A stretch of 64,000 bases of DNA from Chitinivorax sp. B (GCF_005503445.1 NZ_SCOH01000011.1:34085-98084); one strand, 5' to 3'; positions 6,229-41,899 are shown, numbered from the stretch's first letter. Notes: a model not told the origin generated them from the sequence alone. A program made the numbers and translations.

Positions 6229-6234
6229 TGAACC

Positions 6235-10799: not shown

Positions 10800-10830
10800 C
10801 TGATCGACACATTTCTTGAAAGCGACATGT
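10800..10830 (-). promoter_or_regulatory. putative ArgR-type box upstream of aotJ
   Basis: The minus strand reads ATGTCGCTTTCAAGAAATGTGTCGATC, with TGTCGC-N8-AA followed by a second TGTCGA half-site. It lies about 120-145 bp upstream of aotJ. Confidence 0.35.
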
Positions 10831-10918
10831 TGTTATATCGCCATATGACCGATTACACAGTATCAACCGAACCACCGAAACATGCGAAAATGATTGGTTC
10901 CATGTGCAGGCATCCAAG

Positions 10919-10960
10919 CGTCGAGCCAATGTACAAAGCTGTCGCATTAGGGAAATCCGC
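10919..10960 (+). promoter_or_regulatory. putative ArgR-type box upstream of gdhB
   Basis: The plus strand reads CGTCGAGCCAATGTACAAAGCTGTCGCATTAGGGAAATCC. The half-sites are 21 bp apart and the second is TGTCGC-N8-AA. The first half resembles the aruC site (CGTCGC-N4-AATG). Confidence 0.4.
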
Positions 10961-11144
10961 TAGATCAGCGTTTCGTTAGAATGCGCCAGAATAAAAAAAG
11001 GCATGACACTTGAGTGATAGTCGTATTTAGCTATGCTGAAATGTTCGCCGGCGCCAGTGGCTGCCCCAAAACCGTTGAATGGCTTGATCACAAGTCAAGT
11101 CACTGCAGCGGCTTTGGGACAGCTTCTGAGGAGGAGACCCCCAC

Positions 11145-26013: not shown

Positions 26014-26271
26014 GCGATTCTCGAAAAAACGGGGTGTGTTCGAAAAGACCTCGCATAATACCGCAAAAGGCCATCATTTTCGAGGCGAACATCGGCCGGA
26101 CCATACCTTCTCCCTTGCTCCACAATCAATTGATTGCTATTGGCAAACATCCATGTCGATACATTCCATGACAAATGAAGGCGTTTGATCGGCATCAATC
26201 CTGCTCGCCAAGCCTTTCTGTGCCATGTCCGCAACTGTTAAACTGACCAAAACGGCCACGAAAGTTTAAGC

Positions 26272-27666
26272 ATGGACTATTTCCCGACATTCATGAATCT
26301 GCAGGGGCAACCCTGTGTCGTCATTGGCGGTGGCGACGTGGCTGCCCGCAAGGCCGGGCTACTGGCGAAGGCTGGCGCCAGACTCACTATTGTCTCGCCT
26401 GAATTGTGCGCCGCGCTGCAAGCCGAGGCAGTGGCAGGTCGCCTGCTACACTTGGCAGCACCATTTGCCCCGGAACACTTGGCCAACGCCACACTGGTGA
26501 TCGCGGCAACGGATGACGAAACGGTCAATCGACAAGTTGCCGATACCGCACGCGCTCAGCGCATTCCTGTCAATGTAGTGGATCAACCCGATCTATGCAG
26601 CTTTATCATGCCTGCCATCATTGATCGATCACCCGTTGTCATCGCAGTGTCGACCGGCGGCGGCGTACCGGTACTTGCCCGCCTCATTCGCGCCAAGCTG
26701 GAAACCATGATTCCCAGCACCTATGGCGAACTAGCCAAGTTGGCGACCGAATTCCGCGACCGCGTCAAAGCACGATTTGGCAGTGTCACCGCACGCCGCA
26801 TATTCTGGGAAGACGTACTACAAGGCGATGTAGCCGAAAAGGTGTTTTCCGGCAATATCGACGCTGGCCGCAAGCTGCTGGAGCAAGCACTGCAACAAGC
26901 AGAACAAGGTACGCGCAATCTCGGTGCGGTATATCTGATCGGTGGCGGCCCAGGCAACCCGGATCTGCTTACCTTCCGTGCGTTACGGCTGATGCAGCAG
27001 GCTGATATCGTATTGTATGACGCACTGGTTGCTCCCGAAATCGTCGATCTGTGTCGGCGCGATGCAGAGCGCATCTTCGTTGGCAAGCAAAGCAGCAATC
27101 ATGCACTGCCACAGGAAGACATCAACCAGCTGCTGGTCTACCACGCCCAACAAGGTAAACGGGTAGCCCGCCTGAAAGGCGGTGACCCGTTCATCTTCGG
27201 CCGAGGTGGCGAAGAAATTGAAACCCTGGTCGAATACAACGTTCCGTTTGAAGTCGTGCCCGGCATTACCTCCGCGCAAGGCGCCTCCAGCTACGCAGGC
27301 ATCCCTCTCACCCATCGTGACCACGCCCAGTCCTGTACCTTTGTCACCGGTCACCGCCGCGATGGTGCCGGCGAAGTCGACCTCGACTGGCCCTCGCTGA
27401 CTCGGCCGGAACAAACTGTGGTGGTCTACATGGGGGTCGGGCAGTTACCTGAAATCTGCCGGCAAATGATCGCCTATGGCCGCAGCGCCAACACGCCCGC
27501 CGCCATCATCGAGCGCGCAACAACCTCTCGGCAACGGGTGGTCATCGGCAATTTGCAGTCGCTGCCAGACAAGGCAACTGAACAACAGGTCAAAGCCCCG
27601 GCACTGATCGTGATTGGTAGCGTTGTCAGCCTACATGAGAAATTGTGCTGGTTCAAAACCCAATAG
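26272..27666 (+). CDS. cysG: siroheme synthase (uroporphyrinogen-III methyltransferase / precorrin-2 dehydrogenase / ferrochelatase)
   Basis: 464 aa. It starts [31 protein letters not shown], close to E. coli CysG. The SAM-methyltransferase motif [11 protein letters not shown] is present. Confidence 0.9.
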
Positions 27667-27730
27667 ACAAGGCACGCACCGAAGAAACACAGCCCGCGTG
27701 CACGGGCCGCTTACTTGACTGACTAGGCAG

Positions 27731-28162
27731 TTACTGTGCCTTTTCCACCTCGATCGTCGACTTGGCCGGCGGCGCAGTCGGGTCAACCGGATGGCTAGTA
27801 GTATTGATGAACCACAACTTACCATCGACCTCAATACGCGCTGTCAACGCATATTGGCGCTTAGCTTCCAATTTATTGGCAGGGTAACGCAATTTGAATG
27901 CAATCGGCACCTGCTTGCCCTTGGTCTGAATGGTCTGCTGGGCAATGGTAGTCGCAGCCACATCCATCAACGATACATCGTCAAGCCGCACCTGCACCTT
28001 GGCATTTGGAGGCAAAGCCATCCGCTCGCGGTAGACCACCCCCCCTTTCAGCACCATCATCTTGCCCACCTTTTTTGTCAGCGCCTCGGCCCCCTGAGCC
28101 ACAGAACATACTCCACTCAGCGCCAACCCAAGTAACATGACATGCATCGTCCGAATTAGCAT
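27731..28162 (-). CDS. YbaY-like (lipo)protein
   Basis: 143 aa with a signal peptide. It resembles E. coli YbaY in size and pattern (...VQVRLDDVSLMDVAATTIAQQ...GKQVPIAFKL...DGKLWFIN...). Confidence 0.55.
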   Translation of the reverse strand: MLIRTMHVMLLGLALSGVCSVAQGAEALTKKVGKMMVLKGGVVYRERMALPPNAKVQVRLDDVSLMDVAATTIAQQTIQTKGKQVPIAFKLRYPANKLEAKRQYALTARIEVDGKLWFINTTSHPVDPTAPPAKSTIEVEKAQ

Positions 28163-28485
28163 TTTGCTTCCTTATTGATGACAAATGGCTATGGTAGCCG
28201 TTTCTTAGTTACCAGAAAATCGAATGCCACCGCACCAGCCCCTTAACAATATGACTTACCCTTTTGCCGCAACGGGCGGACAGAATACACATAGAAACCA
28301 CGTGAGCCGATCTGCATCAACGAGATTTTAATCGAATAACTTGTCACATAACCGTCATATTTCCATGGCACAGTGGCGGGCAATGCAACCGTTATCGTAT
28401 ACACCTCCATTACAAACACCACATGAGCTGATATTTGCCAATTCAGATCAGCCAGTAGCGAACACATTTCAGCATACTTACTCAA

Positions 28486-28512
28486 GCCGCCAAATCTGGC
28501 GGCTTTTTATTT
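28486..28512 (+). terminator. orphan plus-strand intrinsic terminator upstream of the psp/flotillin operon
   Basis: The sequence is GCCGCCA-AATC-TGGCGGC followed by TTTTTATTT. No plus-strand CDS precedes it. Confidence 0.45.
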
Positions 28513-28583
28513 GGCCTCGTCAAACCAGCATTTCCGCAGCGGCGCAACACGCAAGTCATTTGACAGCACTGCCGTCAGAGCAA

Positions 28584-28626
28584 GACATAATATGTCTTGA
28601 CATTTTATGTCCAAAATCCAATACTC
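28584..28626 (+). promoter_or_regulatory. sigma70-like promoter (TTGACA-N17-AATACT) overlapped by two tandem palindromes GACAT-N3-ATGTC
   Basis: The sequence is AGACATAATATGTCTTGACATTTTATGTCC. It lies about 40 bp upstream of the GTG start at 28665. Confidence 0.3.
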
Positions 28627-28664
28627 AACCTGTCGCTTTCATCCTTTTACCTTGGAGACAACGC

Positions 28665-29078
28665 GTGGACTTTCTGCAACGCATCGAACAATCCCTGACC
28701 GAGGTGCAATCCCACATGGGTGGACTAGAAGTACAAATGCAACCAATTCCCGGTGAAGTGGATGTGGTTCAACTCACCATCGAGGGTCGTGAGTCACTGC
28801 CGATTTTTCTCACTCGCTCGGACGCGCAAATGTTGTGTATCTGCTACCTGTGGACCGATGCCGAAGTTAAGCCGGATCAGCGCCAGGCGATGCAAACGAC
28901 GATGCTGGATCTGAACGTAGCAGTACCGTTGTCCTCTTTCGGACGCATCCAAGACAAATATGTACTGTTCGGCGCCCTGGCAAGCCACGCGACACCCGCC
29001 GACATTGCACTGGAAATCGTGACACTCAGCGACAACTCGGTCGACGCGCTGGATGCGATGTCGGACTACCTAATCTAA
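28665..29078 (+). CDS. YjfI-like DUF2170-family protein
   Basis: A 137-aa product from a GTG start preceded by GGAG, which is the right size for DUF2170. The track ORF (28341..) cannot be real because it runs through the terminator hairpin. It is the first gene of the operon. Confidence 0.5.
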   Translation: MDFLQRIEQSLTEVQSHMGGLEVQMQPIPGEVDVVQLTIEGRESLPIFLTRSDAQMLCICYLWTDAEVKPDQRQAMQTTMLDLNVAVPLSSFGRIQDKYVLFGALASHATPADIALEIVTLSDNSVDALDAMSDYLI

Positions 29079-29088
29079 GGAGGCAAAC

Positions 29089-29808
29089 ATGAATGTGTTC
29101 AACAAAATTCTTACCGCCCTACGTGGTTCGGTTCGCGAGATCGGCGAAAGCGTGGTCGATGCCAATGCTACCCGCATCTATGAGCAGGAGATCATGGATG
29201 CCAAGCACCACTTGAGCCAAGCCAAACAGGACTTAACGCTGGTCATGGCCAAGGAAATGCAAGCACAGCGGGATATCGCACGCCTGAATGGCGAAATCGC
29301 CAAGTATGAGCAACATGCACTACAGGCCCTGGACAAGGATGCCGCCACGCTGGCAGAAGAGGTTGCAGAACGGATTGCCATACTGGAAGTGGAGCTGACA
29401 GGCCAGATCAAGGTCAAGGAGGAATTTGCCGGTAACATTGTGCGACTGAAAGAACTGATCAAACAAACTGAAGCTAAATTACGAGAACATGAGCGTGAAC
29501 TGGCCATGGCCAAAACCACCGAAAGCGTCTATCGCGCTACTCAGTCCATCTCGCAGAGTATGCATGGCGGTGGGTCCAAGCTGATATCGGCAAGGGAATC
29601 TCTGGATCGCATCAAGCAACGCCACACCGAACTGAGTGATCGTATCAAGGCCACTGAACAATTGGATAACGAGTTGGGTGACAAAGCGCTGGATGCCAAG
29701 CTAGCAGCTGCAGGTATCGGCGCACAGGTTAATGGCAAGCAGGTTGTGCTGGACCGATTGAAAGCCAAGCATCGCGGCACCGATACCTCGCCAAAACAGG
29801 ATACGTAA
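29089..29808 (+). CDS. PspA/IM30-family protein (YjfJ-like, ESCRT-III-like)
   Basis: A 239-aa coiled-coil protein with the PspA/IM30 pattern (MNVFNKILTALRGSVREIGESVVDANATRIYEQEIMDAKHHL...). A strong AAGGAGG RBS precedes it. Confidence 0.8.
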   Translation: MNVFNKILTALRGSVREIGESVVDANATRIYEQEIMDAKHHLSQAKQDLTLVMAKEMQAQRDIARLNGEIAKYEQHALQALDKDAATLAEEVAERIAILEVELTGQIKVKEEFAGNIVRLKELIKQTEAKLREHERELAMAKTTESVYRATQSISQSMHGGGSKLISARESLDRIKQRHTELSDRIKATEQLDNELGDKALDAKLAAAGIGAQVNGKQVVLDRLKAKHRGTDTSPKQDT

Positions 29809-30137
29809 TGAGCAAGCCGATTCCCAGCCGCTGGCAAAGCTCGGACACCGCCATCAAAGCCGTGCAAGTCGCATTTGATGTCGAAGAGACGGTAATGAAT
29901 GCTGTGCGCCGTGCAGCCTTTGACAATAGTTTGTCCGCTTCGGATCAAATCCGCTTGGTTCTAGGTTTGTCCGTCGCCACCAAACCAAAGCGGCCACGCC
30001 TGACTGTCTCGCTGTCGGAAGAGGATTACCGTATTCTGGGCAAACGGTATGGCATCGATCCGGACGAACGGCTAAAAATCAAGGAGCACGTCACACAAGA
30101 CCTGATCCAGTTTGCTCAAACCACCGAGGACAAATGA
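29808..30137 (+). CDS. small protein with two tandem ribbon-helix-helix (CopG/Arc-like) repeats
   Basis: 109 aa. Its start overlaps the PspA stop (TAATG). Repeat 1 (KAVQVAFDVEETVMNAVRRAAFDNSLSASDQIRLVL) and repeat 2 (RLTVSLSEEDYRILGKRYGI) both fit the RHH strand-helix pattern. Confidence 0.4.
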   Translation: MSKPIPSRWQSSDTAIKAVQVAFDVEETVMNAVRRAAFDNSLSASDQIRLVLGLSVATKPKRPRLTVSLSEEDYRILGKRYGIDPDERLKIKEHVTQDLIQFAQTTEDK

Positions 30138-30162
30138 CCCTCCTCCGCCATAAGGAACCGCC

Positions 30163-30858
30163 ATGCCACTGTGGCTTGATGCCATCCTGAGTTTTCCAAC
30201 CATCGTTTACACCATCTTACTGGTTGTCGTGGTGACTTATTGGCTGCTCGCCATTGTCGGGCTGGTCGATTTCAGCCATGGCCATCATGGCCATATGGAA
30301 TGGCACGACCTTGCGCATGGTCATGGCCACGATACCCACTTTCCTGCAGATGCGCACGGACATGGCGAAACCGATGTCAGCACGATTGCCAGTTTCGCCA
30401 TGGCGATGGGGCTTAGCGGTGTGCCCTTTTCGATTGTCGTCAGTCTGATCGTGTTCTTTGCCTGGGTTATATCGGCATTGGTGGGTGAATACGTACTGGT
30501 GTGGGTACCAACCCAGCTACTCAGAATATTGTTCGGTCTAGCAGTGATGGCAGGCGCCTTTGCAATGGCCTTGCCACTGACCGCCCTGACAATCCGTCCG
30601 ATGCGACCTCTGTTTGTCGTACACAACGCCCCACACAATGCCGGCCTGGTTGGGTTGCCCTGTCGTATTTTGACCCTAACGGTGGACGAAAAATTTGGTC
30701 AGGCAGAGGTCACGCACCAAGGCAGCACGTTCAACATCAAAATCTGGGCTCCCACACCCAATGGCTTGACCAAGGGCAGCATCAGTGCCCTGCTGGATTA
30801 CGACCAGAAAACTGGTCGTTACGAAGTGGCAACGGTCGATATCACCACCGACCAATGA
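30163..30858 (+). CDS. YqiJ/NfeD-like inner-membrane protein (His-rich loop, C-terminal OB-like beta domain)
   Basis: 231 aa with an N-terminal TM, the His-rich segment HGHHGHMEWHDLAHGHGHDTHFPADAHGHGE, further TM helices and a soluble beta-rich C-terminus. It sits directly upstream of the flotillin gene, as in yqiJ-yqiK and nfeD-floT pairs. Confidence 0.5.
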   Translation: MPLWLDAILSFPTIVYTILLVVVVTYWLLAIVGLVDFSHGHHGHMEWHDLAHGHGHDTHFPADAHGHGETDVSTIASFAMAMGLSGVPFSIVVSLIVFFAWVISALVGEYVLVWVPTQLLRILFGLAVMAGAFAMALPLTALTIRPMRPLFVVHNAPHNAGLVGLPCRILTLTVDEKFGQAEVTHQGSTFNIKIWAPTPNGLTKGSISALLDYDQKTGRYEVATVDITTDQ

Positions 30859-30964
30859 CAACCATGCCTTCTGACCAGCGGTCCGAGACATCCAACAATC
30901 AAGTGCAACGACAAGGCTACGTATTCGGGGCACGGCAATAGATAACAACACAAATGAGGAAAAT

Positions 30965-33037
30965 ATGGAAATTCTGCTGATTGCCAGTGGCATACTGACG
31001 CTGATCATCTTTGGTGCATTCGTGCTGTTTGCCAAGTTCTATCACAAAGTAGAGCAAGGTCACGCCATGATCGTCAACACCTTGCGCGCTGAACCGGAAG
31101 TGACCTTCACCGGCCGTATGGTCTACCCCATCATCCATATTAAGGAACTGATGGATATCTCGGTGAAAACCGTGGTGATCAAGCGCACAGGAAAAGAAGG
31201 CTTGATCTGCTCGGACAACATTCGTGCCGATATCGAGGTCACCTTCTTCGTCCACGTCAACAAAACCACTGAAGACGTCCTGAAAGTCGCCCAGACTATC
31301 GGTTGCAACCGCGCCTCCAGCCAGGAAACCTTGGAAGAACTGTTTGCCGCCAAATTTTCAGAGGCGTTGAAAACCGTTGGCAAAGCAATGAAGTTTGAAG
31401 ATCTGTACCAGGAACGTGACAAGTTCCGTGACGAAATCATCCGCCAGATCGGCAACAACCTGTCCGGTTACGTACTGGAAGATGCCGCCATCGATTATCT
31501 GGAACAAACCCCGCTCGATAAGCTGGACCCGAACAATATTCTGGATGCACAAGGCATCCGCAAGATTACCGAACTGACCGCCATCGAACACGTGCAGACC
31601 AACGAGTTGCAACGTAACGAGCAGATGCAGATCAAGAAGAAAGACGTCGAAACCCAGGAAACCTTGCTGGAACTGGAACGCCAACAAGCGGATGCGCAAG
31701 CCCGCCAAACCCGTGAAATCGCCTCAGTCCGTGCTCGCGAACAAGCCGAGGCCGCCAAGATCCAAGCGGAGGAAAATGCCAAGGCCGAGTTGGCACGCAT
31801 CCAGTCCGAACAAGTGATTGCCGTACAACAGGAGAACATGCAACGCGAGAAGGAAGTTGCCGAAAACAACCGTAAGCGAGCGGTGGCCATCGAGGAAGAA
31901 AAAGTCACCCGTGCCCGTCAATTGGAGATCGTCGATCGCGAGAAAGAAGTAGCCTTGCAGGAAATCGACAAAGAAAAGGTATTGGAAATCCAGAAGAAAG
32001 CCATCGCAGACGTCATCCGCGAACGCATCGTGGTGGAACGCACCGTGGCCGAGCAGGAAGAAGCCATCAAGGAACTACGTAAAGTCGCGGAAGCTGACCG
32101 TAACAAAAAAGCCGTGGTCATCACAGCAGAAGGCAAGGCCGAGGAAAAACTGGTGATCGACGTGAAAGCAGCTGAGGCTGAAGAACGCCGCGCCAAGCAC
32201 AAGGCGCAGGAAGAATTGACCTTGGCTGAAGCCCGCCTGAAAGTGGCCGAGAAACAGGCGGAAGCCAAGAAACGGGAAGCCGAGGGGATGGAAGCGGTCG
32301 CCGCCGCACCTGGGCTGGCTCATGCCAAGGTACAAATGGCATCTGCCGACGCCACCGAAAAACAAGGCATGGTCGACGCCAAGGTGAAAATCGCCAGTGC
32401 CGAGGCCGTCACCAAATTGGGGAATGCCGAAGCCGAAGCGCTGTTGGCCAAGCTGGAAGCGGAAGCACAAGGCAAACAACAACTAGGCTTGGCGGATGTG
32501 CAAGTCAAAACGGCTGATGCACAAGCGGTTGAAGCACGCTTCCAGGCCGAAGCCAAGGGCCTGCGTGAGAAATTCGCCGCCATGAAGGAAATGAGCGACG
32601 ATACCCGCTCTCACGAGGAATTCCGGATGCGTCTGGACAATGCCCACATCGAAACGCTCAAGGCGATCGAGGCCAACACGGTGATCGCCAAGGAACAAGC
32701 GGCAATGATCAGTACCGCCCTGGGCAATGCCAAGATCGACATCGTCGGCGGCGAAGGAGATTACTTCCAGAAATTTGTCGGTGCCCTGGGTACGGGCAAG
32801 GCAATAGACGGCATCATCAACCGTAGCCAGACACTGCAACTGGCACTGAAAGACCACCTGACCGGTGAGCGTGACTTCATCGAAGATGCCAAGGGCTTAC
32901 TGGGCAGCCTTGGCAATTCGGCAGATGAGCTACAGAACCTGAGTGTTGCCGCCCTGCTGTCGAAAGTGATGAACAATGGCAGCGACGAGCAGAAAGCGGC
33001 ACTGACCAGCTTGCTGGCAGGGTTCAAGAAGCCTTGA
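30965..33037 (+). CDS. flotillin-family protein (SPFH/band-7 domain plus long EA-rich coiled coil), YqiK-like
   Basis: 690 aa with an N-terminal TM, an SPFH domain and an extended Glu/Ala/Lys-rich coiled-coil region. A GAGGA RBS precedes it. Confidence 0.85.
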   Translation: MEILLIASGILTLIIFGAFVLFAKFYHKVEQGHAMIVNTLRAEPEVTFTGRMVYPIIHIKELMDISVKTVVIKRTGKEGLICSDNIRADIEVTFFVHVNKTTEDVLKVAQTIGCNRASSQETLEELFAAKFSEALKTVGKAMKFEDLYQERDKFRDEIIRQIGNNLSGYVLEDAAIDYLEQTPLDKLDPNNILDAQGIRKITELTAIEHVQTNELQRNEQMQIKKKDVETQETLLELERQQADAQARQTREIASVRAREQAEAAKIQAEENAKAELARIQSEQVIAVQQENMQREKEVAENNRKRAVAIEEEKVTRARQLEIVDREKEVALQEIDKEKVLEIQKKAIADVIRERIVVERTVAEQEEAIKELRKVAEADRNKKAVVITAEGKAEEKLVIDVKAAEAEERRAKHKAQEELTLAEARLKVAEKQAEAKKREAEGMEAVAAAPGLAHAKVQMASADATEKQGMVDAKVKIASAEAVTKLGNAEAEALLAKLEAEAQGKQQLGLADVQVKTADAQAVEARFQAEAKGLREKFAAMKEMSDDTRSHEEFRMRLDNAHIETLKAIEANTVIAKEQAAMISTALGNAKIDIVGGEGDYFQKFVGALGTGKAIDGIINRSQTLQLALKDHLTGERDFIEDAKGLLGSLGNSADELQNLSVAALLSKVMNNGSDEQKAALTSLLAGFKKP

Positions 33038-33058
33038 CCACCAGTTGTGAAACACACG

Positions 33059-33076
33059 GTCGGGCTTCTGCCCGAC
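33059..33076 (+). other. intra-operon hairpin GTCGGGC-TTCT-GCCCGAC between the flotillin and zinc-ribbon genes (no T-run)
   Basis: A perfect 7-bp stem. It may be an mRNA processing or stability element or a partial attenuator. Confidence 0.3.
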
Positions 33077-33127
33077 TGACCTCACTCGTTATCACCCGAT
33101 CCGCCAGACTGGGAGACCAGGAACATC

Positions 33128-33664
33128 ATGCACTGCCCTACCTGCAACGAAGCTCTCAGCCAATACGAACCCGCTGCTGGCCTGCGGGCCCATCATTGTG
33201 AACATGGCCATGGCATGTGGCTGGACATCGCGGAGTACCGTCGCTGGCTGCCGACACAAGCGGCCCACGGCGCCAGCCCCCTGACCGAACCAATATCAGA
33301 CATCAGCGACCACCGCGCGGCCCGTGCTTGCCCGGTATGTACTCGCATCATGCAGAAATATCGGGTATCCAGCCGGTTCGATTACCGCCTTGATCGCTGC
33401 AATACCTGCCAGGGTGTGTGGTTCGACCAAGGCGAATGGGATGCGCTGGTTGCCTTACAACAACAAGGCGATCTGAATACGATTTTGTCAGATGCCGGGC
33501 AACGTGACATTCAAGCCACCATCAGTCGGGAACGCATTGATGCACGCGATCGCGAACGGTTTGGCGACACCGTTTTTGCCGAACTGCAGCGTATCCGCCA
33601 ATGGCTGGCTAACCAACCCAATGCCCATGAACTGCTGGCTTATCTGAACCGCAGGGAACACTGA
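33128..33664 (+). CDS. protein with two tandem zf-TFIIB-like zinc ribbons
   Basis: Ribbon 1 is CPTC...HHCEHGHGMWLD and ribbon 2 is CPVC...CNTCQGVWFDQGEWDAL. Both fit the CPxC...C(x)2(C/H)GxW motif. Confidence 0.6.
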   Translation: MHCPTCNEALSQYEPAAGLRAHHCEHGHGMWLDIAEYRRWLPTQAAHGASPLTEPISDISDHRAARACPVCTRIMQKYRVSSRFDYRLDRCNTCQGVWFDQGEWDALVALQQQGDLNTILSDAGQRDIQATISRERIDARDRERFGDTVFAELQRIRQWLANQPNAHELLAYLNRREH

Positions 33665-33670
33665 TCAACC

Positions 33671-36600
33671 ATGTCCGAACCCCAAGAAAACCTCACCGAA
33701 CTTGCTGGTGGTAGCTACGATCTGCTTCGCCAACGGTTGAATCAACAAGGCGAAATGCTATTGACCAAGGCTGGCACACTGAATGAGGCAAGACTGGCCG
33801 AATTCGGCCGGGAAGACATGCGACTGATCCGCCGCATCCGTGCCCGTACTGAAAACAACTGCGTAGCCCGCGATCTGGTTCGGGTCGGCCCCTGGCTGCT
33901 GTTTGGCTACAACGTCTTCATTGGCCTTAAAAAAGAAACCCGCATCGAGGATGTGTTCAGCCTGTATCAACTGGTGGAAGGCAACGATGGTGACGAACTG
34001 ATACCCTCGCCATTCGATGGAACCTTTCTGGCTGATCAGCGCTTCACGGCCGATTTCCGCGAGCTTTACGCCTATTACAAACAAGCCACTTTGGTGCAGT
34101 TACGGGTACACAATGACAAATTGTTGGTCGCCTTCAAAATCGGCCAACAAATCACCGATATCCGCGTGTTCCGCTGGGCATTGGCGCCAGACGGCAAGAT
34201 TGCCTATATCGACAACCGTGGTGAGCGTGACATACAGCTGCCACCTACCCATGATTTCGAGTGGACCACCACCACCCGCGAAGACCACGTCAATGGCAAG
34301 CACCCGCATATCAACATTCTTGACACGGTGTTTGTGGAAACAATTGGCGGCGATCTGACCATCAAGATCGAGAACAACACTGAAAGTGGATTGGGTATCT
34401 TCAGCGAACCGGTGGATGACCGGAACCAATCATTGGCCGATGCCGACGTCGCCTATGCACGGCTGGGTGCGTTGATTCTGCTACGTATCAAGCCATATCG
34501 TGAAGACAAAGTACGTTACTTGGTCTACAACCAGCGCACCCAAACCGCCACCCGGATTGATGAGATGGGTGAGAGTTGTGTGCAATTGCCAGAAGACCAC
34601 GGAATCATCTTTCCCGGTGGGTATTACCTACAAAGCGGTGAATCCAAACGCTTTGATACTGACGCAGCTGGCATGCGCTTCAAGCGGATGGCACGCTCAC
34701 CCAACGGCGAGGATGTGCTGTATGTGTTCTATGAACCGGTAGCCGGTAAGCTTGGCCTGTTCTCCTACAACCTGATTGACAAGCAATTGTCAGCACCGAT
34801 CTACAGCAATGGCTACGCCCGCTTTGCAGACGGCCGCATCCTGTTGTTTATCGCAGAAAGTGACGAACCTACCCGCACCCACCCCATGCAATTGTGGCAA
34901 ACCCCATTCTGCAATGAGGAATTCGCCAGCAGCAAAGCGATTGGACACGGTTTTTTCGGCCGTATTGGTAATGGTGAACTGGTGCGCGGTTTGTCGGAAC
35001 TCTATGGCATTGCCCGTGCCGTGCGCGAGCAATGCCCCTCCCGCCACGCCTATGAAGACCTGATCAAGCACTGTGCCCGCGTTCAGGACAGTTATTTTTG
35101 GCTGGACGCCCCCGAGACAGGCCAGTTGGCTAGCGAACTCAAGGCAATCGGCGACACCGCCCGCGCCACGCTGGATGAGTTCGACAAGATCACCAGCATC
35201 CGTCGTGAAGCAGCCAAATTGCTGACTCAGGCAGAAGCCGAACAGAAAGCACTCAACACGGATATTGCCAGTGCACTATGGCACTCGCCTGGTGATTTTG
35301 TTGTAGCGCTGGACAAGCTGCGCGCGCAACGCGGCAGGCTGCTGACCTTGAAGGAAGCACGTTACATTGACCTGGACCGGATCAGCCAGCTGGATGTCGA
35401 GCTGACTACCGAGCAAACACGAATTGCCGACAAAACCATCCGCTTTTTGGCGCAAGATACAGCCTTTGACAGCTATCGCAATGAGCTGGCAAAAACTGCA
35501 ACCCAGCTGCCCACAGTGGAAAAGACTGTCGATCTGGCGCCGATTCTGGCCCAGCTGGATCAGGTGGCCCATGGTCTGGATCTGTTGACCGAGCTACTGG
35601 GCACACTGGCCGCCGGCGACGCCACTTTGCGCACCCGTATTCTGGATGCTATTTCCGGCGTCTATGCAGAGGTGAACAGATTACGCGCCGAAGCCCGCAA
35701 GCTGAAAAAACAATTGGCCGAAACCGAATCGGCCGCCGAATTTGGTGCGCAATTCAAGCTATTCGGGCAAAGCATTGCCAATGCGCTGGATCTGGCCGAC
35801 TCACCAGAAAAATGCGATGAGGCCATGACACGGCTACTGACGCAACTGGAAGAATTGGAAGGCCAGTTTGGTGAACAGGATGCCTTCATCGCCGATATTG
35901 CCATCAAACGCGAAGCGGTCTACGAGGCATTTTCCGGACGCAAGCAAACCTTGCTGGATGAGCGCCAGAAACGGGCCGGCGCCCTGTTTGATGCTGCCAG
36001 CCGCATTCTCGCAGGCATTCCCAAACGCGTGGTGCAACTGTCTGAGCAAGCACAACTACATGCCTACTTCGCCTCCGACGCGCTGATCCTGAAACTAAAG
36101 GGCTTGATAGGCGAGCTGCGCAAACTGGGCGACGCAGTCCACGCTGACGACCTCGAATCCCAATTGAAAACGGCGCGCGAAAATGCCGTCAAGGTATTGC
36201 GTGATCGCACCGAGCTGATGGGCGAAGGCGGTAATGTGATCCGCCTGGGCAAACACGCCTTTACCGTCAACGTGCAGCCGCTGGACCTGACCCTAGTACC
36301 CAAAGAAGGCGCCCTCGCCTTTCACCTGACCGGGACTGACTATTTTGAAATGGTCAATGACTCAGTGCTGGATTCACTCAAACCCTACTGGGGCTTGGTG
36401 CTACCCAGTGAAACACCTTCGCTGTATCGAGCCGAATATTTAGTCGGCCAATTGCTGGACGCGGCAACCCGCAAGGAATTCGGCTTGGATCTGAACCGCC
36501 TGCACGAGATCGCCGCTGACCTGCCAGCACTACAGGATCGCGTTCGTCAATTTGCGGCACCACGTTATCAGGATGGCTACCAGAAAGGCGTCCATGATCA

Positions 36601-38866
36601 TGATGCTGCATTGATATTGGCAGCCCTGCTACCAATGATGGACCATGCCGGCCTGCTTCGTTACAGCCCAACGGCCCGTGCACTGGCCGCGCTCTACCAT
36701 GCCGCCATTGGCGAAGGCCTGCAGACCCAATTGAAGCGACGCGCCCACAGCGCAGAACAACTTCATGCCCAGTTCGGACAAGATCAAGCCATAAACGAGC
36801 TCCGCCAGCATACCGTACGCAGCCTAGCCCGCTTTGCCAAGGAAAGCGGTCTGGAAAGCTGGTCCAATGGCACTTTGCTGGAAGAAGCTGGTGAATATCT
36901 GGTCGCTGAATTGGCCAGCCCGCAACGGGATTGGACAGAAAGTGGCAATGCCCGGGATTTGGCCGATGGCCTGATTCACTATCTGGAACATGCCAACCTG
37001 ATTGGCGAATGGCGTGACACACTGCAAAGCGGTAGCTTGAATGAACGCTGGTTACATGCCAGCCACTGGCTACAAGGCTATGCAACGGCCCACGCCCCGC
37101 AGGCCGTGTTCTTTGTCCCAGAAGCCGCCGCCCTACTATTGACCGAGCAAGCTCGTCATCGCGTCAATGCCACACTGCAACAGGCAGTACCGGGCTTGCT
37201 GGGTGAACACCCATTGATTCAGCAGGGTACGCTGCAGATCAACCTGAACGATTTCCGTCAAAGGCTAGCTCATCATCGCCAAGTTGTATTGCCTGCCTAC
37301 GAGCAACTACAGGCGTTACGACAGCAACTGGTCACAAATCGCAAGGGCGAACTCAAACTGCATCAGTTCCAGGCCAAACCACTGTCCAGCTTTGTGCGCA
37401 ACCGCCTGATCGACGAGGTATACCTACCCATCATTGGCGACAACTTAGCCAAACAGATGGGTACAGCGGGCGAAGCACGTCGTACCGATTTGATGGGGAT
37501 GCTGTTGCTGATCTCACCCCCCGGTTATGGCAAGACCACGCTGATGGAATATCTGGCTGATCGGCTGGGCATGATCTTCGTTCGAATCAACTGCCCTGCC
37601 TTGGGCCACGACATTGTCTCACTCGACCCTGCCCAGGCAACCCATAGCGCGGCGCGGCAAGAACTGGAAAAGCTCAACCTCGGATTGATGATGGGCAATA
37701 ACGTGATGTTGTATCTGGATGATATCCAACACACCAATCCGGAGTTCCTGCAGAAATTCATCGCGCTATGTGATGGCACGCGCAGAGTGGAAGGCGTATG
37801 GCATGGTGAACCGCGCACGTTCGACCTACGTGGTAAGCGTTTCGCAATCGTCATGGCAGGCAACCCATATACTGAATCAGGGGAAGCCTTCAAGATTCCG
37901 GACATGTTGGCCAACCGGGCCGACATCTATAATTTGGGTGATGTGTTGTCTGGGCGTGAAGCGTTGTTTGCCCTGTCATATCTGGAAAACAGCCTGACCG
38001 CTCACCCCGCCTTGGCTCCACTGACCAGTCGGGCACCGTCGGACGTCCGCCTATTTGTACAGATGGCGCAAGGTGAGAACGTTCCCCAAAGTGAGTTTAG
38101 CCATGCTTACGGTGCCGCTGAAGCCAATGAGATTGTTGGCCTGTTCCGCAAGCTGTTCCAGGTGCGTGATGTGCTGCTGCAGGTGAACGCAGCATACATC
38201 GCCTCCGCCGCGCAGGCTGATGCCTACCGTACTGAACCACCATTCAAGCTGCAGGGTAGCTATCGCAATATGGCCAAACTGACGGCCAGGGTCAGCGCCA
38301 TCATGCGCGATGATGAACTGGCCGCACTGCTGCGTGACCACTATCGCGGTGAAGCACAGACCCTGACCCAAGGTGCGGAAGAAAACCTCCTGAAATTGTC
38401 GGAAATCCTTGGGGACCATACGCCAGAAGAAGCCGAGCGTTGGGCTACCATCCGCGCCGATTTTCAACGCCACAAAAAACAAGGCGGCGCCGATGCCGAT
38501 GGCACCACCAAGCTTGCCAATCTGGCGGCGGATATGGCCGTCACGCTAGGCGATATTGCTGGACAACTACGTGATGCCCAAGGCACCAAAACCTTGGCCA
38601 AGGTTTTGCATGATGGACTGGGTACACTCGCCAAACATGTCCCACCCGCACCGCAAGTACATGTGCAGGTTGAACCCGCGGCAGATATCGTGGACGTCAT
38701 CCGCGGCCTGGCACAAGCCTATGAAACAGCGTTACTACCCACCATCAGTGCCATGAACCATAAGATTAGGTTGGATCATGAGATCTGGGAGAAAGTGCAG
38801 CAAATAGGCGAAGAGCTAACCAACCTGCAACAGCGCATTACCGCAGTAAGCAAGGCACCGCGATGA
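33671..38866 (+). CDS. giant (1731 aa) protein with an N-terminal beta-rich domain, long helical regions and a C-terminal MoxR/dynein-like AAA+ ATPase module
   Basis: Walker A LLISPPGYGKTTL (about nt 37510-37545), Walker-B-like MLYLDDIQH, and sensor-like AIVMAGNP...ANRADIYNLGD. The start lies 6 nt after the zinc-ribbon gene stop, so translational coupling is likely. Confidence 0.7.
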   Translation: MSEPQENLTELAGGSYDLLRQRLNQQGEMLLTKAGTLNEARLAEFGREDMRLIRRIRARTENNCVARDLVRVGPWLLFGYNVFIGLKKETRIEDVFSLYQLVEGNDGDELIPSPFDGTFLADQRFTADFRELYAYYKQATLVQLRVHNDKLLVAFKIGQQITDIRVFRWALAPDGKIAYIDNRGERDIQLPPTHDFEWTTTTREDHVNGKHPHINILDTVFVETIGGDLTIKIENNTESGLGIFSEPVDDRNQSLADADVAYARLGALILLRIKPYREDKVRYLVYNQRTQTATRIDEMGESCVQLPEDHGIIFPGGYYLQSGESKRFDTDAAGMRFKRMARSPNGEDVLYVFYEPVAGKLGLFSYNLIDKQLSAPIYSNGYARFADGRILLFIAESDEPTRTHPMQLWQTPFCNEEFASSKAIGHGFFGRIGNGELVRGLSELYGIARAVREQCPSRHAYEDLIKHCARVQDSYFWLDAPETGQLASELKAIGDTARATLDEFDKITSIRREAAKLLTQAEAEQKALNTDIASALWHSPGDFVVALDKLRAQRGRLLTLKEARYIDLDRISQLDVELTTEQTRIADKTIRFLAQDTAFDSYRNELAKTATQLPTVEKTVDLAPILAQLDQVAHGLDLLTELLGTLAAGDATLRTRILDAISGVYAEVNRLRAEARKLKKQLAETESAAEFGAQFKLFGQSIANALDLADSPEKCDEAMTRLLTQLEELEGQFGEQDAFIADIAIKREAVYEAFSGRKQTLLDERQKRAGALFDAASRILAGIPKRVVQLSEQAQLHAYFASDALILKLKGLIGELRKLGDAVHADDLESQLKTARENAVKVLRDRTELMGEGGNVIRLGKHAFTVNVQPLDLTLVPKEGALAFHLTGTDYFEMVNDSVLDSLKPYWGLVLPSETPSLYRAEYLVGQLLDAATRKEFGLDLNRLHEIAADLPALQDRVRQFAAPRYQDGYQKGVHDHDAALILAALLPMMDHAGLLRYSPTARALAALYHAAIGEGLQTQLKRRAHSAEQLHAQFGQDQAINELRQHTVRSLARFAKESGLESWSNGTLLEEAGEYLVAELASPQRDWTESGNARDLADGLIHYLEHANLIGEWRDTLQSGSLNERWLHASHWLQGYATAHAPQAVFFVPEAAALLLTEQARHRVNATLQQAVPGLLGEHPLIQQGTLQINLNDFRQRLAHHRQVVLPAYEQLQALRQQLVTNRKGELKLHQFQAKPLSSFVRNRLIDEVYLPIIGDNLAKQMGTAGEARRTDLMGMLLLISPPGYGKTTLMEYLADRLGMIFVRINCPALGHDIVSLDPAQATHSAARQELEKLNLGLMMGNNVMLYLDDIQHTNPEFLQKFIALCDGTRRVEGVWHGEPRTFDLRGKRFAIVMAGNPYTESGEAFKIPDMLANRADIYNLGDVLSGREALFALSYLENSLTAHPALAPLTSRAPSDVRLFVQMAQGENVPQSEFSHAYGAAEANEIVGLFRKLFQVRDVLLQVNAAYIASAAQADAYRTEPPFKLQGSYRNMAKLTARVSAIMRDDELAALLRDHYRGEAQTLTQGAEENLLKLSEILGDHTPEEAERWATIRADFQRHKKQGGADADGTTKLANLAADMAVTLGDIAGQLRDAQGTKTLAKVLHDGLGTLAKHVPPAPQVHVQVEPAADIVDVIRGLAQAYETALLPTISAMNHKIRLDHEIWEKVQQIGEELTNLQQRITAVSKAPR

Positions 38867-39029
38867 CAAGAACTGACCAGTAGGCAGGTTAAACATCCGA
38901 TAACGCAAATGCACAGACCATCACTTGAATGAGATAGGCTGTGTTTTATGCCTGATAATCGGTGAAGGCATGGTCGGCCTATTCTGTTATCGTGTCTTAA
39001 AATCCGAAGCTATGCATATGGAGCCTTTC

Positions 39030-39866
39030 ATGTCCGACGACAACAATTCGCAACGTATCAAGACCATCGCCATCGCAACAGCCATCGTGGCCTTGCTGGT
39101 TGGCGGCGGCGCCGCCATATTCGGTTCGTCCGACAAGAAAGCAGATGCAACCAAAGCTGCTGGCGGCAAACTCGCCAATTCGGACAGCAGCGCCAGCAGC
39201 GACACTTCGAGTGACGCCATGCAGAAACTGGCCGCCGAAACCAAGGCTGGCCGACAACCCCAAACCAGTAACAGCAAAACCATCTTGAGTGGTTCCGACG
39301 TGAAGCCAGGCGCAACCAAACTTGCCACGGCAACACCACCAGGCGCTGAGCATGGCGACATGATCAGCGGTGGCATGGGTGGAGGCAGTTCATCCAACGT
39401 TGCACCGTTCAAGAATGGCGATTTGGTATCGCTACAGTGTCAGGACACGGTACCCGGCCCCAAATGGCTGAATGGTTCTGTCAAGAGCAGTTCAGTCGGG
39501 TTATCCATGCAACAGGAAGCTGCACCTGCCTCCACGTGGTGGAAAGTCACCGTCAGCAACGAAGGCTCGATTGTTTTTGAAAGTCAGGACGGTGGTGCTG
39601 GCAATTTCCTGTCCACCAGCGGCACCACAGGCTTGCGCCTACAGCCCAACGCCAAGGACCCAGGCGCCATGTGGTTGGTCGAAAAATCGGAACGTGGCTG
39701 GTCATTACGCAATATGGACAATCCACAGGGCGGCCGATGGGTAGACTGTGTCGCAGCAGACAATAAAGTCTGGATGGCACCTAGCCGGGACGGCCATGTC
39801 AACGGCACCAGCTGGAAGATCGTGAAAAAACCCGCAGCCGGCTCCGAGTCTGCCACACAAAGCTGA
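39030..39866 (+). CDS. membrane-anchored protein with Ser/Ala-rich linker and C-terminal beta-trefoil (ricin-B/fascin-like) candidate domain
   Basis: The start was chosen at MSDDNN after GGAG. A single TM follows (IAIATAIVALLVGGGAAIF). The C-terminus contains three repeats of about 40 aa with conserved Trp residues (TWWKV..., AMWLV..., TSWKIV...). Confidence 0.42.
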   Translation: MSDDNNSQRIKTIAIATAIVALLVGGGAAIFGSSDKKADATKAAGGKLANSDSSASSDTSSDAMQKLAAETKAGRQPQTSNSKTILSGSDVKPGATKLATATPPGAEHGDMISGGMGGGSSSNVAPFKNGDLVSLQCQDTVPGPKWLNGSVKSSSVGLSMQQEAAPASTWWKVTVSNEGSIVFESQDGGAGNFLSTSGTTGLRLQPNAKDPGAMWLVEKSERGWSLRNMDNPQGGRWVDCVAADNKVWMAPSRDGHVNGTSWKIVKKPAAGSESATQS

Positions 39867-39885
39867 CCCATTGGAATCGGTCCCG

Positions 39886-39922
39886 TCGCCACGTGCCGGT
39901 CTGGCCCGTGGTGATTTTTTTG
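39886..39922 (+). terminator. intrinsic terminator closing the operon
   Basis: The sequence is GCCACG-N12-CGTGGTGATTTTTTTGA. Confidence 0.5.
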
Positions 39923-39963
39923 ATCACTACACTCAAATCACATCACCACGCCAAAGCCTGTGA

Positions 39964-40407
39964 TCAGCGATAGACTAATACGGGGATCTTGCTATGCGTC
40001 AGCACCTTGTTGGTCTCGCTACCCAACAACAGACTTTGCAAGCCACGCCGACCATGAGAAGCCATCAGAATCAGGTCACAACCGCACTGCTCAGCAACGC
40101 TCACAATCGCTTGGTAGATCGATTCACCCGTTACAGCCTCCGTTTTGCAAGTCACCCTGGCTTCTCGGGCCGCATCTGCCACAATACCAAGATAGCGATC
40201 GGCAATGCTTTGTTGGTGTTTCTGAAATTCGTCAACCGATGACACATTCAGTGGCGCATACTCTGTCACTGGCATCACAGGAAAGCGCTCCATCACATAC
40301 AGTGCCGTGATGCGCGCATCCGTTTCAATTGCCAACTTAATAGCAGCATCTACTGCCTTGCCAGACAGTGGCGACCCATCAGTCGGGACCAGAATATGTT
40401 TGAACAT
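39964..40407 (-). CDS. uspA: universal stress protein (UspA family)
   Basis: 147 aa with the UspA fold motifs (MFKHILVPTDGS..., GSHGRRGLQSLLLGSETNKVL). Confidence 0.85.
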   Translation of the reverse strand: MFKHILVPTDGSPLSGKAVDAAIKLAIETDARITALYVMERFPVMPVTEYAPLNVSSVDEFQKHQQSIADRYLGIVADAAREARVTCKTEAVTGESIYQAIVSVAEQCGCDLILMASHGRRGLQSLLLGSETNKVLTHSKIPVLVYR

Positions 40408-40775
40408 GATGGATTCCTCCTCAAGTAAGCTCCAGCAAGTCCAGCATCAATGCAACGTACCAATTGAAAGCAGGAGCAGGTTGTGGATGTACACGGATCT
40501 AAGGTAATCGATCCCCAACAATGCGCTATTGATTGAAATCAAGGACCCTGAGGGCGATTCAACACCATGCAACCTGTCCGTCAGGCAGCCTTGACTTAAA
40601 TTGTGTAGCGATGTGCAAATGGGTGACGGGGAATGTGCCAAGCTAAGTAGTACGGCCGCATGGTATCGCTGTCATTGGGCAAAAATACTTGGCCTGTATC
40701 TGGAGACATCCAGAAAAATAGGGGCTTTTGAGCCCACCCACATCATAGGGCGGGCAACAAAACCAATACCTGCTA

Positions 40776-41720
40776 TCAAACCATCCGCAAGGTATTCAAA
40801 GCAGAACATGGCAGTTCATCTGCCGACATCCATCGCTGTAATCGATCGGCAGCGGACTGTAAGGCACTATCTGCTTCTGGCATCAGCCCGGCCAGCATCT
40901 GCCAGCCATGCCACATATGATCACCGACCAGAAAATCGACCCGCACACCAGCAATCTTGGCCTTTTCCATCAGGCGATCCGCATCACTAAACAATATCTC
41001 ATCACTGCCAACTTGAATCACCAACGGCGGCAACCCACGCAAGTCTGCATATAAAGGAGAGATCAATGGCGTCGCTGGATCGCGTCCCGCACAATACATA
41101 TCAGCCTGCCAAGCCAACCATGCGCGACTGATCATCGGATCTCGTTCGGCACGCGTAACCAAGCTGCCACCCGTCAACATCAGATCAGTCCAAGGAGACA
41201 ACAGCAAGAGTGCCCCCGGCATCGGCCGACCACGCTCACGTATACGTAATGCTGTCGACAATGCCAACCCACCTCCTGCCGAATCCCCAGCGAGCACAAT
41301 CCGTCTTGCGGCAACACCCTGCGCCAACAACCAGTCATATGCCGTTACTGCATCATCCAGCCCTGCGGGGAAAGGATGCTCAGGCGCAAGCCGATAGTTG
41401 GGCAACAATGCCTGACCATGTAGGCGTCGACATAGTCTGGCGACCAAACTCCGGTGTGTCCTCGCCGCCCCCATACAATATCCGCCGCCATGTAGAAATA
41501 GAAAAATCGGGCCATCGTCGTGATCTCTGAAGGTCAACCATTCACATGGCACCCGCTCCGCGTGGACAGTCTTGACTCGCAAGGTGGGCGGCACCGGCAA
41601 ACAACTACCCGCATGCATCACATGCGAACGTTGCCTTGCCAGCGGCCATTCGGGATGCAGTTTGGAACTAAACCAGTGCTTGACTACTAGGCGATGAATA
41701 TGACTGCGTAGACTTGGCAT
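40776..41720 (-). CDS. alpha/beta hydrolase, hormone-sensitive-lipase-type esterase
   Basis: The HGGG oxyanion motif (FLHGGGYCMG) and the GDSAGG nucleophile elbow are present. The start was chosen at MPSL (ATG at 41720) after GGAGGGG. Confidence 0.75.
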   Translation of the reverse strand: MPSLRSHIHRLVVKHWFSSKLHPEWPLARQRSHVMHAGSCLPVPPTLRVKTVHAERVPCEWLTFRDHDDGPIFLFLHGGGYCMGAARTHRSLVARLCRRLHGQALLPNYRLAPEHPFPAGLDDAVTAYDWLLAQGVAARRIVLAGDSAGGGLALSTALRIRERGRPMPGALLLLSPWTDLMLTGGSLVTRAERDPMISRAWLAWQADMYCAGRDPATPLISPLYADLRGLPPLVIQVGSDEILFSDADRLMEKAKIAGVRVDFLVGDHMWHGWQMLAGLMPEADSALQSAADRLQRWMSADELPCSALNTLRMV

Positions 41721-41899
41721 GACCCCTCCAATCCGGCAGGGTACAAGCCATACCAACGTATTGCAGGCCACTACATAGTCGCCCCAATACGTCACCTGGC
41801 ATTGCTCCTTACTCGGGTATCGCTAGACCGTTAACACGGCCATCTCAACACGCCATCATGACCTCATGACAGGTCTACGGCGCATATCATGTCGATACA

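Follow-up and report, generated by a model that had tools for sequence, protein, structure and literature searches.

A DUF2170-PspA-NfeD-flotillin-ATPase operon of Chitinivorax sp. B: membership in a described class, conserved core, and predicted repressor and operators

Described relatives and the Chitinivorax operon

Operons that join a CesT/Tir(DUF2170)-PspA dyad with three more genes, one of them encoding a YqiJ/YuaF protein with three transmembrane segments, were described by Ravi et al. (2024, mSystems, PMC11237479, section 19); some Proteobacteria add a PLD hydrolase, and abbreviated flotillin-YqiJ-ATPase operons are more widespread. Here, we analyzed an operon of seven closely packed plus-strand genes (g1 to g7, 28665-38866) in a 64-kb stretch of Chitinivorax sp. 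B, which we call the window and in which all coordinates are counted. All five gene families that define the class of Ravi et al. are present in this operon; it is a new member of a described class and adds no new kind of system, contrary to a preliminary description of the window that had proposed a candidate undescribed one. The class is widespread, with more than 5000 homologue clusters for its ATPase, and it joins an ESCRT-III-like PspA protein, an SPFH/flotillin scaffold, and a very large AAA+ ATPase. The Chitinivorax operon differs from the published pattern by two additional genes, one for a small ribbon-helix-helix (RHH)-like protein between the PspA and NfeD genes and one for a double zinc-ribbon protein between the flotillin and ATPase genes, and by the lack of the PLD (HKD) hydrolase gene of some Proteobacteria. 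Neither an RHH gene nor a zinc-ribbon gene is mentioned in the section of PMC11237479 on this operon group; elsewhere, the same paper notes an RHH gene in another PspA group and two zinc ribbons in Bacillus subtilis YdjG, and one of its supplementary files lists its example accession (ANH61663.1) under a Dokdonia Toastrack context.

The preliminary description had recognized no counterpart among catalogued systems, but one with reverse transcription-PCR (RT-PCR) and phenotype data exists in Pseudomonas aeruginosa, namely, the bac operon ("biofilm-associated cluster," PA3732-PA3727 or PA14_16140-16200; PMC2587700, PMC10948618, PMC13086221). The genes bacA to bacF are cotranscribed according to RT-PCR, the other Bac proteins are up 6- to 13-fold in a bacA mutant (PMC10948618), and bac mutants are impaired in biofilm formation, rhamnolipid production, swarming, and virulence (PMC10948618, PMC2587700). 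PA14_16160 is a short NfeD protein and PA14_16180 is the SPFH protein PaFlo3 (PMC13086221); PA3728, designated "ATPase," is recurrently mutated in cystic fibrosis isolates (PMC8190622). Pseudomonas-type loci in our sample have the gene order DUF2170-PspA-NfeD-flotillin-ATPase, and their first gene product scores 327 to 350 bits on the NCBIfam BacA equivalog, above its cutoff of 300. These loci, which carry BacA equivalogs and have the same order, tie the class to the P. aeruginosa operon, and through them as intermediates the five-gene core appears to match bacABCDE of bacABCDEF.

The plus strand of the window carries eight co-directional open reading frames (ORFs; g1 to g8) at 28.3 to 39.9 kb, where about nine genes had been counted before. 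The products of g1 to g7 are, in order, a DUF2170/YjfI protein, a PspA/YjfJ protein, the small RHH-like protein, a YqiJ-type short NfeD protein, a YqiK-type flotillin, the double zinc-ribbon protein, and a DUF3686 AAA+ ATPase. One promoter-like site lies ahead of g1, and the intergenic distances from g1 to g7 are 10, -1, 25, 106, 90, and 6 nt, the -1 junction being an overlap of the g2 stop with the g3 start (TAATG); 163 nt separate g7 from g8. As had been proposed, pairs resembling yjfIJ and yqiJK are thus joined with a giant AAA+ ATPase in one compact cluster, and this cluster is conserved.

The NfeD-flotillin-ATPase core and its gene products

Eighty related loci were retrieved from one-genome-per-species contigs by alignment of 12 ATPase homologues; they span Beta-, Gamma-, and Zetaproteobacteria, Myxococcota, Actinomycetota, and one metagenome-assembled genome labelled Clostridia. 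The six-frame ORFs of each locus were searched with the window proteins and then with profiles. Homologues of g4 (NfeD) and g5 (flotillin) lie directly upstream from the ATPase gene, with order and strand preserved, in every locus with more than 3.2 kb of upstream sequence (69/69). Of the 67 loci for which over 5.2 kb is available, 40 have the DUF2170-PspA pair, each of these being proteobacterial, and 27 lack it; the counts for PspA refer to the locus neighborhood. No adjacent PspA gene was found in Actinomycetota, Myxococcota, and many Xanthomonadales loci, and in three loci (L065, L072, and L074) the DUF2170-PspA pair is divergent from the NfeD-flotillin-ATPase triad. The triad is the invariant core of the system, and PspA with its chaperone is an add-on. 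In the preliminary description PspA had stood at the center as a sensor of membrane damage; the invariant partners of the ATPase demonstrated here are flotillin and NfeD, and PspA is an accessory seen in Proteobacteria only.

The sampled loci follow the pattern of Ravi et al., including the version without PspA and PLDc_2 genes downstream in 12 loci. Homologues of g3 occur in 15 of the 80 loci, and a zinc-ribbon gene between the flotillin and ATPase genes occurs in about 11, mostly from Burkholderiales. The exact seven-gene order of the window was found again in L003, L004, L005, L009, L013, L022, and L055. Since order is conserved across related loci, the juxtaposition of these genes is not coincidental, which answers the question of neighborhood conservation that the preliminary description had raised.

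Genes found downstream from the ATPase gene on the same strand are variable. Those of the PLDc_2 type lie about 0 to 1 kb past the ATPase gene (L004, L016, L018-L021, L024, L028, L030, and L033), a rhomboid protease is encoded in eight loci (L012, L018, L019, L021, L025, L026, L028, and L071), and TelA is encoded in Xanthomonadales (L036, L038, L039, L041, and further loci); the window has none of these. A rhomboid gene beside an SPFH/NfeD module recalls known protease-SPFH partnerships.

The coordinates given in the preliminary description and most of its gene calls hold, including those of the YjfI-like DUF2170, PspA/IM30, YqiJ/NfeD-like, 690-aa flotillin, and double zf-TFIIB products. The features of the operon and its surroundings are collected in Table 1.

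Table 1. Genes and sequence elements at the Chitinivorax locus, in window coordinates
Feature	Position	Strand	Basis
Terminator-like hairpin with T run	28484-28505	+	9-bp stem, 6 G-C pairs, tail TTTATTTGG
Two adjacent palindromic operators, GACATAATATGTC (28584-28596) and GACATTTTATGTC (28599-28611)	28584-28611		Predicted g3 sites
Sigma-70-type promoter, -35 TTGACA, 17-nt spacer, -10 AATACT	28597-28625	+	10/12 consensus matches
g1, DUF2170/YjfI/BacA family, 137 aa	28665-29078	+	Pfam DUF2170, 1e-30
g2, PspA/IM30 (ESCRT-III-like), YjfJ subfamily, 239 aa	29089-29808	+	Pfam PspA_IM30, 3e-35
g3, two RHH-like repeats, 109 aa	29808-30137	+	Alignment of 16 homologues
g4, YqiJ-type short NfeD membrane protein, 231 aa	30163-30858	+	hhalign to YqiJ
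g5, YqiK-type flotillin, 690 aa	30965-33037	+	hhalign to YqiK
g6, two TFIIB-type zinc ribbons and helical tail, soluble, 178 aa	33128-33664	+	Pfam Zn_ribbon_TFIIB, 1.2e-19, two stretches
g7, AAA+ ATPase, 1731 aa	33671-38866	+	Pfam DUF3686, 4.6e-198; DUF7902, 1e-24; AAA
g8, N-terminal transmembrane segment, Ser/Ala-rich linker, beta-rich C-terminal domain	39030-39866	+	Hydropathy, sequence
Intrinsic terminator after g8, convergent with usp	39885-39921	+	-22.1 kcal/mol, z -2.55, then TTTTTTT

The ATPase g7 consists of a DUF3686 domain (aa 31-476), a DUF7902 domain (598-680), a long helical middle region, and one AAA+ module, whose motifs (Walker A PPGYGKT at 1283, Walker B MLYLDD at 1346, MAGNP at 1395, and ANRAD at 1414) are invariant in 12 homologues. 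The Walker B motif (residues 1346-1351, window 37706-37723) ends in DD in all of these homologues, whereas DE is usual in AAA+ proteins; ATP turnover by g7 may therefore be slow or regulated. The protein is 100% identical to a Chitinivorax sp. B protein and has more than 5172 homologues at E ≤ 1e-10. Its similarity to the nearest PDB sequences (ClpE, Rix7, midasin, and RuvB) is confined to the P-loop region, with E ≥ 9e-4. The AAA_5 match is weak (7e-5) and stands alongside comparable AAA and AAA_22 matches, and the Pfam scan of the operon showed no gene for a VWA-domain protein, the usual MoxR partner. A literature search returned no paper with the term DUF3686, and no solved structure or biochemical study of a DUF3686 ATPase was found in it.

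The two core partners of the ATPase were identified through profiles. Pfam gave no match for g3, g4, g5, or g8 even at E ≤ 5, and direct identification of g4 and g5 with Pfam and PDB gave no match; among the g4 family members, 0 of 31 were matched by any Pfam model, and Band_7 matched 3 of 32 g5 homologues. Family profiles built from homologues in the related loci and compared with E. coli K-12 proteins (NC_000913.3) succeeded, with hhalign pairing the g4 family with YqiJ (probability 93%, E 3e-7) and the g5 family with YqiK (probability 99.9%, E 1.5e-32, 406 columns). Hydropathy indicates about three transmembrane segments and a C-terminal soluble domain in g4, and the two lines of evidence give moderate support to its assignment as a YqiJ/YuaF-type multitransmembrane short NfeD protein. 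The flotillin g5 has one N-terminal transmembrane segment (1-28), an SPFH domain, and a long Ala/Glu-rich helical region. SPFH-NfeD pairs build cage-like oligomers, of which QmcA-YbbJ is an example. The loop between the first and second transmembrane segments of g4 is His-rich (HGHHGH..HGHGHD..HGHGE; residues 39-69, window 30277-30369), and homologues have an Asp-rich loop in its place; this loop may be a cation-binding site.

Hydropathy indicated no transmembrane segments in g1, g2, g3, g6, and g7. For g1, the listed ORF opens at TTG 28341, but the DUF2170 match begins at residue 114 of this long ORF, GTG 28665 follows a GGAGA ribosome-binding site, that GTG and its ribosome-binding site are kept in the closest relative, and beta-proteobacterial homologues have about 135 aa; we therefore take GTG 28665 as the start, which gives a product of 137 aa. 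This product matches E. coli YjfI (E 2e-9) and PDB entry 8q8o (E 2e-5), annotated as "DUF2170 family protein," which we take to be the BacA crystal structure of the bac-operon study (PMC10948618). On the NCBIfam BacA equivalog (NF050185), g1 reaches 44 bits and matches profile positions 85-202 only; it does not have the N-terminal extension of about 70 aa of BacA and represents the short, YjfI-like form. It is of the CesT/Tir-like chaperone fold, and a role as partner and regulator of the PspA homologue g2 is predicted for it. PspA/IM30 proteins are ESCRT-III-like membrane remodelers, and g2 belongs to the YjfJ subfamily (30% identity to E. coli YjfJ over 227 aa, E 3e-23); it begins 10 nt past g1 and thus has the position of a YjfJ-type gene immediately downstream of a DUF2170 gene.

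Control region, operon boundaries, and g8

The sigma-70-type promoter ahead of g1 is the best promoter-like site within 26000-42500. A sigma-54 promoter, as proposed for bacA, was rejected at g1, since no GG-N10-GC element occurs within 400 nt upstream. The second of the two palindromic operators contains the promoter -35 element. In the 64-kb window, the motif GACAT-N3-ATGTC has two matches, both at this promoter, compared with 0.07 expected by chance. In the related loci, a copy closely precedes the first gene in 14 of the 15 that carry a g3 homologue, as against 1 of the 65 that have none; in total, the 80 loci (1.7 Mb) contain it 24 times, of which 23 are in 14 g3-carrying loci and nearly all are ahead of the first operon gene. 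The arrangement TTGACAT-N3-ATGTC with a TAnnnT -10 element after it is seen again in different genera, and in most genera examined the -35 hexamer includes the half-site GACAT, so that operator occupancy should block sigma-70 binding. The closest relative, a cassette found in L084-086 with 73% ATPase identity to the window, has an identical operator pair with the same 15-bp spacing, located in an island of about 45 nt that is perfectly conserved in otherwise unalignable leader DNA. Because the motif co-occurs with g3 and overlaps the -35 element, g3 is predicted to be an autorepressor of the operon; it is probably the operon's repressor, with predicted binding to GACAT-N3-ATGTC.

The fold of g3 was approached in several ways. 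The alignment of its homologues (n = 16) shows two beta-alpha-alpha-like repeats; 9 of 32 homologues have weak RHH matches (RHH_1, 5; FitA-like RHH, 3; RHH_5, 1), all at E ≥ 0.0057, and hhalign to CopG gave a probability of 40%. In the AlphaFold model (predicted local distance difference test [pLDDT] score, 84), the second half is beta-alpha-alpha-like and the first half is one long helix. A Foldseek search with this model returned nothing below E = 1; the highest TM-scores, which were not significant, went to chains E/F of 9f0y (F-plasmid relaxosome) and to AvtR (4hv0), both of which we take to be tandem-RHH proteins. Together, these results are no more than suggestive of a tandem RHH.

Two loci depart from the pairing of g3 homologue and operator. 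In Pseudoalteromonas ardens, the operator TTGACATAATATGTC lies at TTGACA upstream from NfeD-flotillin-ATPase (L063:6828-6840), and no g3 homologue was found within 10 kb. In Methylomonas subterranea, a g3 homologue lies downstream from the ATPase gene (L031:15373-15717), and no operator was found with one mismatch allowed. The DUF2170-PspA-RHH genes of L074:4825-5484 and L072:721-1827 (Cellvibrionaceae, Marinobacter) are divergent from the triad; L074 has four operator copies in the shared intergenic region, and its zinc-ribbon-like ORF stands behind the RHH gene and not ahead of the ATPase gene.

Two terminators had been described as the bounds of a single unit that included g8. Both terminators are there, and g1 to g7 form a tight cluster, but g8 is a separate, genus-specific gene. 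The left hairpin may insulate the operon promoter from upstream transcription; no plus-strand gene ends in the 800 nt or so that precede it, and the hairpin lies within a segment missing at the same site in C. tropicus. Most of the approximately 500-nt leader of g1 (28163-28664), which also contains a minus-strand ORF of 80 aa (28243-28485) with no Pfam match, is likewise missing there. No terminator-like site was found on the plus strand between g7 and g8 (38867-39029), and the terminator after g8 is therefore the probable end of a read-through operon transcript; read-through from g7 into g8 is possible. A perfect 7-bp hairpin (GTCGGGCTTCTGCCCGAC, 33059-33076) lies between g5 and g6. It was ruled out as an internal terminator between the flotillin and zinc-ribbon genes, having no T run on the plus strand, and might set the flotillin:ATPase ratio by acting in RNA processing or stability.

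The most likely start of g8 is ATG 39030, preceded by GGAG. Only two homologues were found among 5.8 billion proteins, one in C. tropicus and the other 97% identical, and none in the 80 related loci (0/80). In C. tropicus, the corresponding block reads purL-cysG-yscW-[g8]-usp-flagellar genes, and the operon is missing from the yscW-g8 interval; the flanks in the window are the same (purL, cysG, a YscW-like gene, usp, and flagellar genes). Since about 130 nt upstream of g8 are kept between Chitinivorax sp. B and C. tropicus, where the site has no operon, g8 has its own upstream region. It is not part of the system, and the possible glycan-binding module that had been counted as a component falls away with it. 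The product, previously called beta-trefoil-like, has a weak three-fold D..G..W repeat, and its AlphaFold model, built with only three sequences in the alignment, has a pLDDT of 32.

Relative to the C. tropicus site, the operon (about 28220-38915) is an insertion or deletion; neither terminal direct or inverted repeats nor an integrase was found as a mark of a mobile element at the cassette. An Abhydrolase_3 gene (40776-41795) between usp and the flagellar genes is absent at the corresponding place in C. tropicus (L083) and is a second small insertion or deletion in this block. In L084, L085, and L086 (about 5170-15460), which are metagenome contigs, cassettes with identical proteins and a leader of about 440 nt stand in three differing upstream contexts, and one contig has integrative and conjugative element (ICE), transposase, PemK, and conjugative TraG/TraI genes downstream; such variety suggests that the cassette can move or that recombination has a hot spot there.

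Function and comparison with known systems

The gene identities, their order, their conservation across taxa, and the conserved promoter-operator are observed here. What they suggest is a chromosomal operon for inner-membrane maintenance and envelope stress, of the class that combines DUF2170, PspA, short NfeD, flotillin, and a DUF3686 AAA+ ATPase, and we hold this to be likely. In such an operon, the flotillin, anchored by its N-terminal transmembrane segment, and the NfeD-like protein would assemble a large SPFH oligomer on the cytoplasmic side of the inner membrane. This pair, which always accompanies the giant soluble ATPase, would be where the latter docks, probably through its N-terminal DUF3686 domain; the ATPase would then spend ATP on building, reshaping, or taking apart the scaffold or the clients of the scaffold. 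In Proteobacteria, the module would work together with a polymer of YjfJ-type PspA, by which stressed membrane would be patched or remodeled, with the DUF2170 chaperone probably keeping PspA in check. In the lineage of this locus, the small RHH-like protein would repress the sigma-70 promoter via the two GACAT-N3-ATGTC operators over the -35 element. The double zinc-ribbon protein, whose gene ends 6 nt ahead of the ATPase gene, would be a probable adaptor and recalls the two-zinc-ribbon YdjG of pspA-ydjGHI.

Several points weigh against the envelope-maintenance reading. Cotranscription at the Chitinivorax locus is inferred from gene spacing, and the divergent DUF2170-PspA pair in L065, L072, and L074 means that the two halves can be separate transcripts. 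The RHH fold of g3 is tentative. The sigma-54 control proposed for P. aeruginosa does not apply here, and regulation therefore differs within the class. For the whole of g7, a PDB profile search returned no relative, and its Walker B motif has DD rather than DE. In P. aeruginosa, deletion of paFlo3 lowers biofilm by only about 20% (PMC13086221), so that phenotypes may be subtle.

The partners of the ATPase also bear on what it acts on. That it is a Vps4-like disassembly engine for the PspA polymer, with flotillin and NfeD only as a membrane platform, is rather unlikely in our judgment, although ESCRT-III polymers of archaea and eukaryotes are recycled by an AAA+ ATPase, bacterial PspA homologues are recurrently associated with AAA+ ATPases (PMC11237479, section 18), and PspA and the ATPase share one operon in the window. 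The ATPase is accompanied by NfeD and flotillin in 69 of 69 loci and has PspA nearby in 40 of 67, and Pfam finds no MIT-like domain in it; because it keeps flotillin and NfeD in lineages without an adjacent PspA gene, the Vps4-like role fits less well. Tentatively, we suggest instead that the DUF3686 ATPase could be a dedicated ATP-driven remodeler or disassemblase of flotillin-NfeD cages, with PspA as a secondary client in Proteobacteria and with the system switched in the sub-lineage by a tandem-RHH repressor on GACAT-N3-ATGTC; this is possible rather than probable. If true, the DUF3686 ATPase would be the first energy-consuming machine known on SPFH scaffolds and a bacterial counterpart of Vps4 on ESCRT-III. 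The reading of g7 as a DNA repair ATPase whose position among membrane genes is incidental draws on names and on weak RuvB P-loop similarities: Pfam describes DUF3686 as "ATPase involved in DNA repair," and the NCBI family name is "DNA repair ATPase," just the kind of generic label that the preliminary description had guessed for it. We give it almost no credence, since similarity to RuvB, ClpE, Rix7, and midasin is found only in the P-loop region (E 1e-3 to 1e-1), Pfam shows no DNA-binding, nuclease, or helicase domain in the protein, the linkage to NfeD and flotillin is invariant across phyla, and the literature search on DUF3686 returned no paper. The label has no support in domain content or context and is probably a misnomer.

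Chance juxtaposition of two independent modules, one yjfIJ-like and one yqiJK-like with the ATPase, is very improbable. The pairs do stand at separate loci in E. coli, and DUF2170-PspA is missing from 27 of 67 loci and divergent in 3; however, the same adjacency occurs in 40 loci of Beta- and Gammaproteobacteria, the gaps in the window are small, the operator of the divergent loci lies within the shared intergenic region, and all six bac genes of P. aeruginosa are cotranscribed and co-regulated (PMC10948618). We see equally little chance of the anti-phage or anti-toxin defense role that had been thought plausible, with PspA and flotillin as sensors of envelope damage and the ATPase as executor of the response. 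Some defense systems do contain giant ATPases and membrane-acting modules, the L084-086 cassette has three different sets of neighbors, which in one case include ICE, transposase, and PemK genes, and an insertion or deletion of the cassette distinguishes the Chitinivorax site from that of C. tropicus. Yet a PADLOC-DB 2.0 run gave no significant match for the eight proteins, with marginal E values of 1.5e-3 to 8e-3 (LmuB, JetC, and IetA) in coiled-coil/P-loop sequence; the flanks are the housekeeping genes named above; the Pfam scan of the operon found no nuclease, protease, or other toxic effector domain; the order of the triad is fixed across phyla, as is typical of a housekeeping or stress module; and what is affected in P. 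aeruginosa is biofilm, rhamnolipid, swarming, and virulence (PMC10948618).

The bac operon of P. aeruginosa, which affects biofilm, rhamnolipid production, and virulence, shares with the window the order DUF2170, PspA, short NfeD, flotillin, and giant ATPase, with the place of the ATPase taken from the Pseudomonas-type loci, whose ATPase is about 51% identical to that of the window and clearly orthologous to it. The two differ in their first gene, since g1 does not reach the BacA equivalog (44 versus 300 bits), and in their control, with a sigma-70-type promoter and RHH-linked operators in the window instead of a sigma-54 promoter; the window also has the extra RHH-like and zinc-ribbon genes and no downstream PLD or rhomboid gene. 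In E. coli, the homologues of g1 and g2 (YjfI and YjfJ) and of g4 and g5 (YqiJ and YqiK) are encoded at two separate loci of NC_000913.3, as had been stated before; yjfIJ is linked to the polyamine-related genes yjfK, L, M, and C, and neither locus has a DUF3686 ATPase.

The B. subtilis pspA-ydjGHI (samGHI) operon resembles the window in that it encodes PspA together with an SPFH protein (YdjI) and a protein that has two zinc ribbons (YdjG); there, YdjI recruits PspA to the membrane, for which YdjG and a further membrane protein, YdjH, are needed as well (PMC8581546, PMC11237479). That operon has neither an AAA+ ATPase nor a DUF2170 gene, YdjG is membrane anchored whereas g6 is soluble, and YdjI has no transmembrane segment whereas g5 has one; the likeness is one of analogy in domain content. 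With ESCRT-III/Vps4 and the classical PspFABC system, the window shares a protein of the PspA/ESCRT-III superfamily encoded with an AAA+ ATPase. The g7 ATPase is neither Vps4-like, having no MIT domain and another architecture, nor a PspF-type sigma-54 activator, and PspF, PspB, and PspC have no match among the eight products or their immediate neighbors. Compared with these systems, the Chitinivorax locus contributes modest new points: the predicted RHH-like repressor and its operator, which are new, the zinc-ribbon insertion, the flotillin and NfeD partners of the ATPase, and the exclusion of g8. The sub-lineage that includes this locus thereby offers a simple, testable switch made up of a sigma-70 promoter, its two operators, and the small RHH-like protein, which could serve to induce the system and to find its stimulus.

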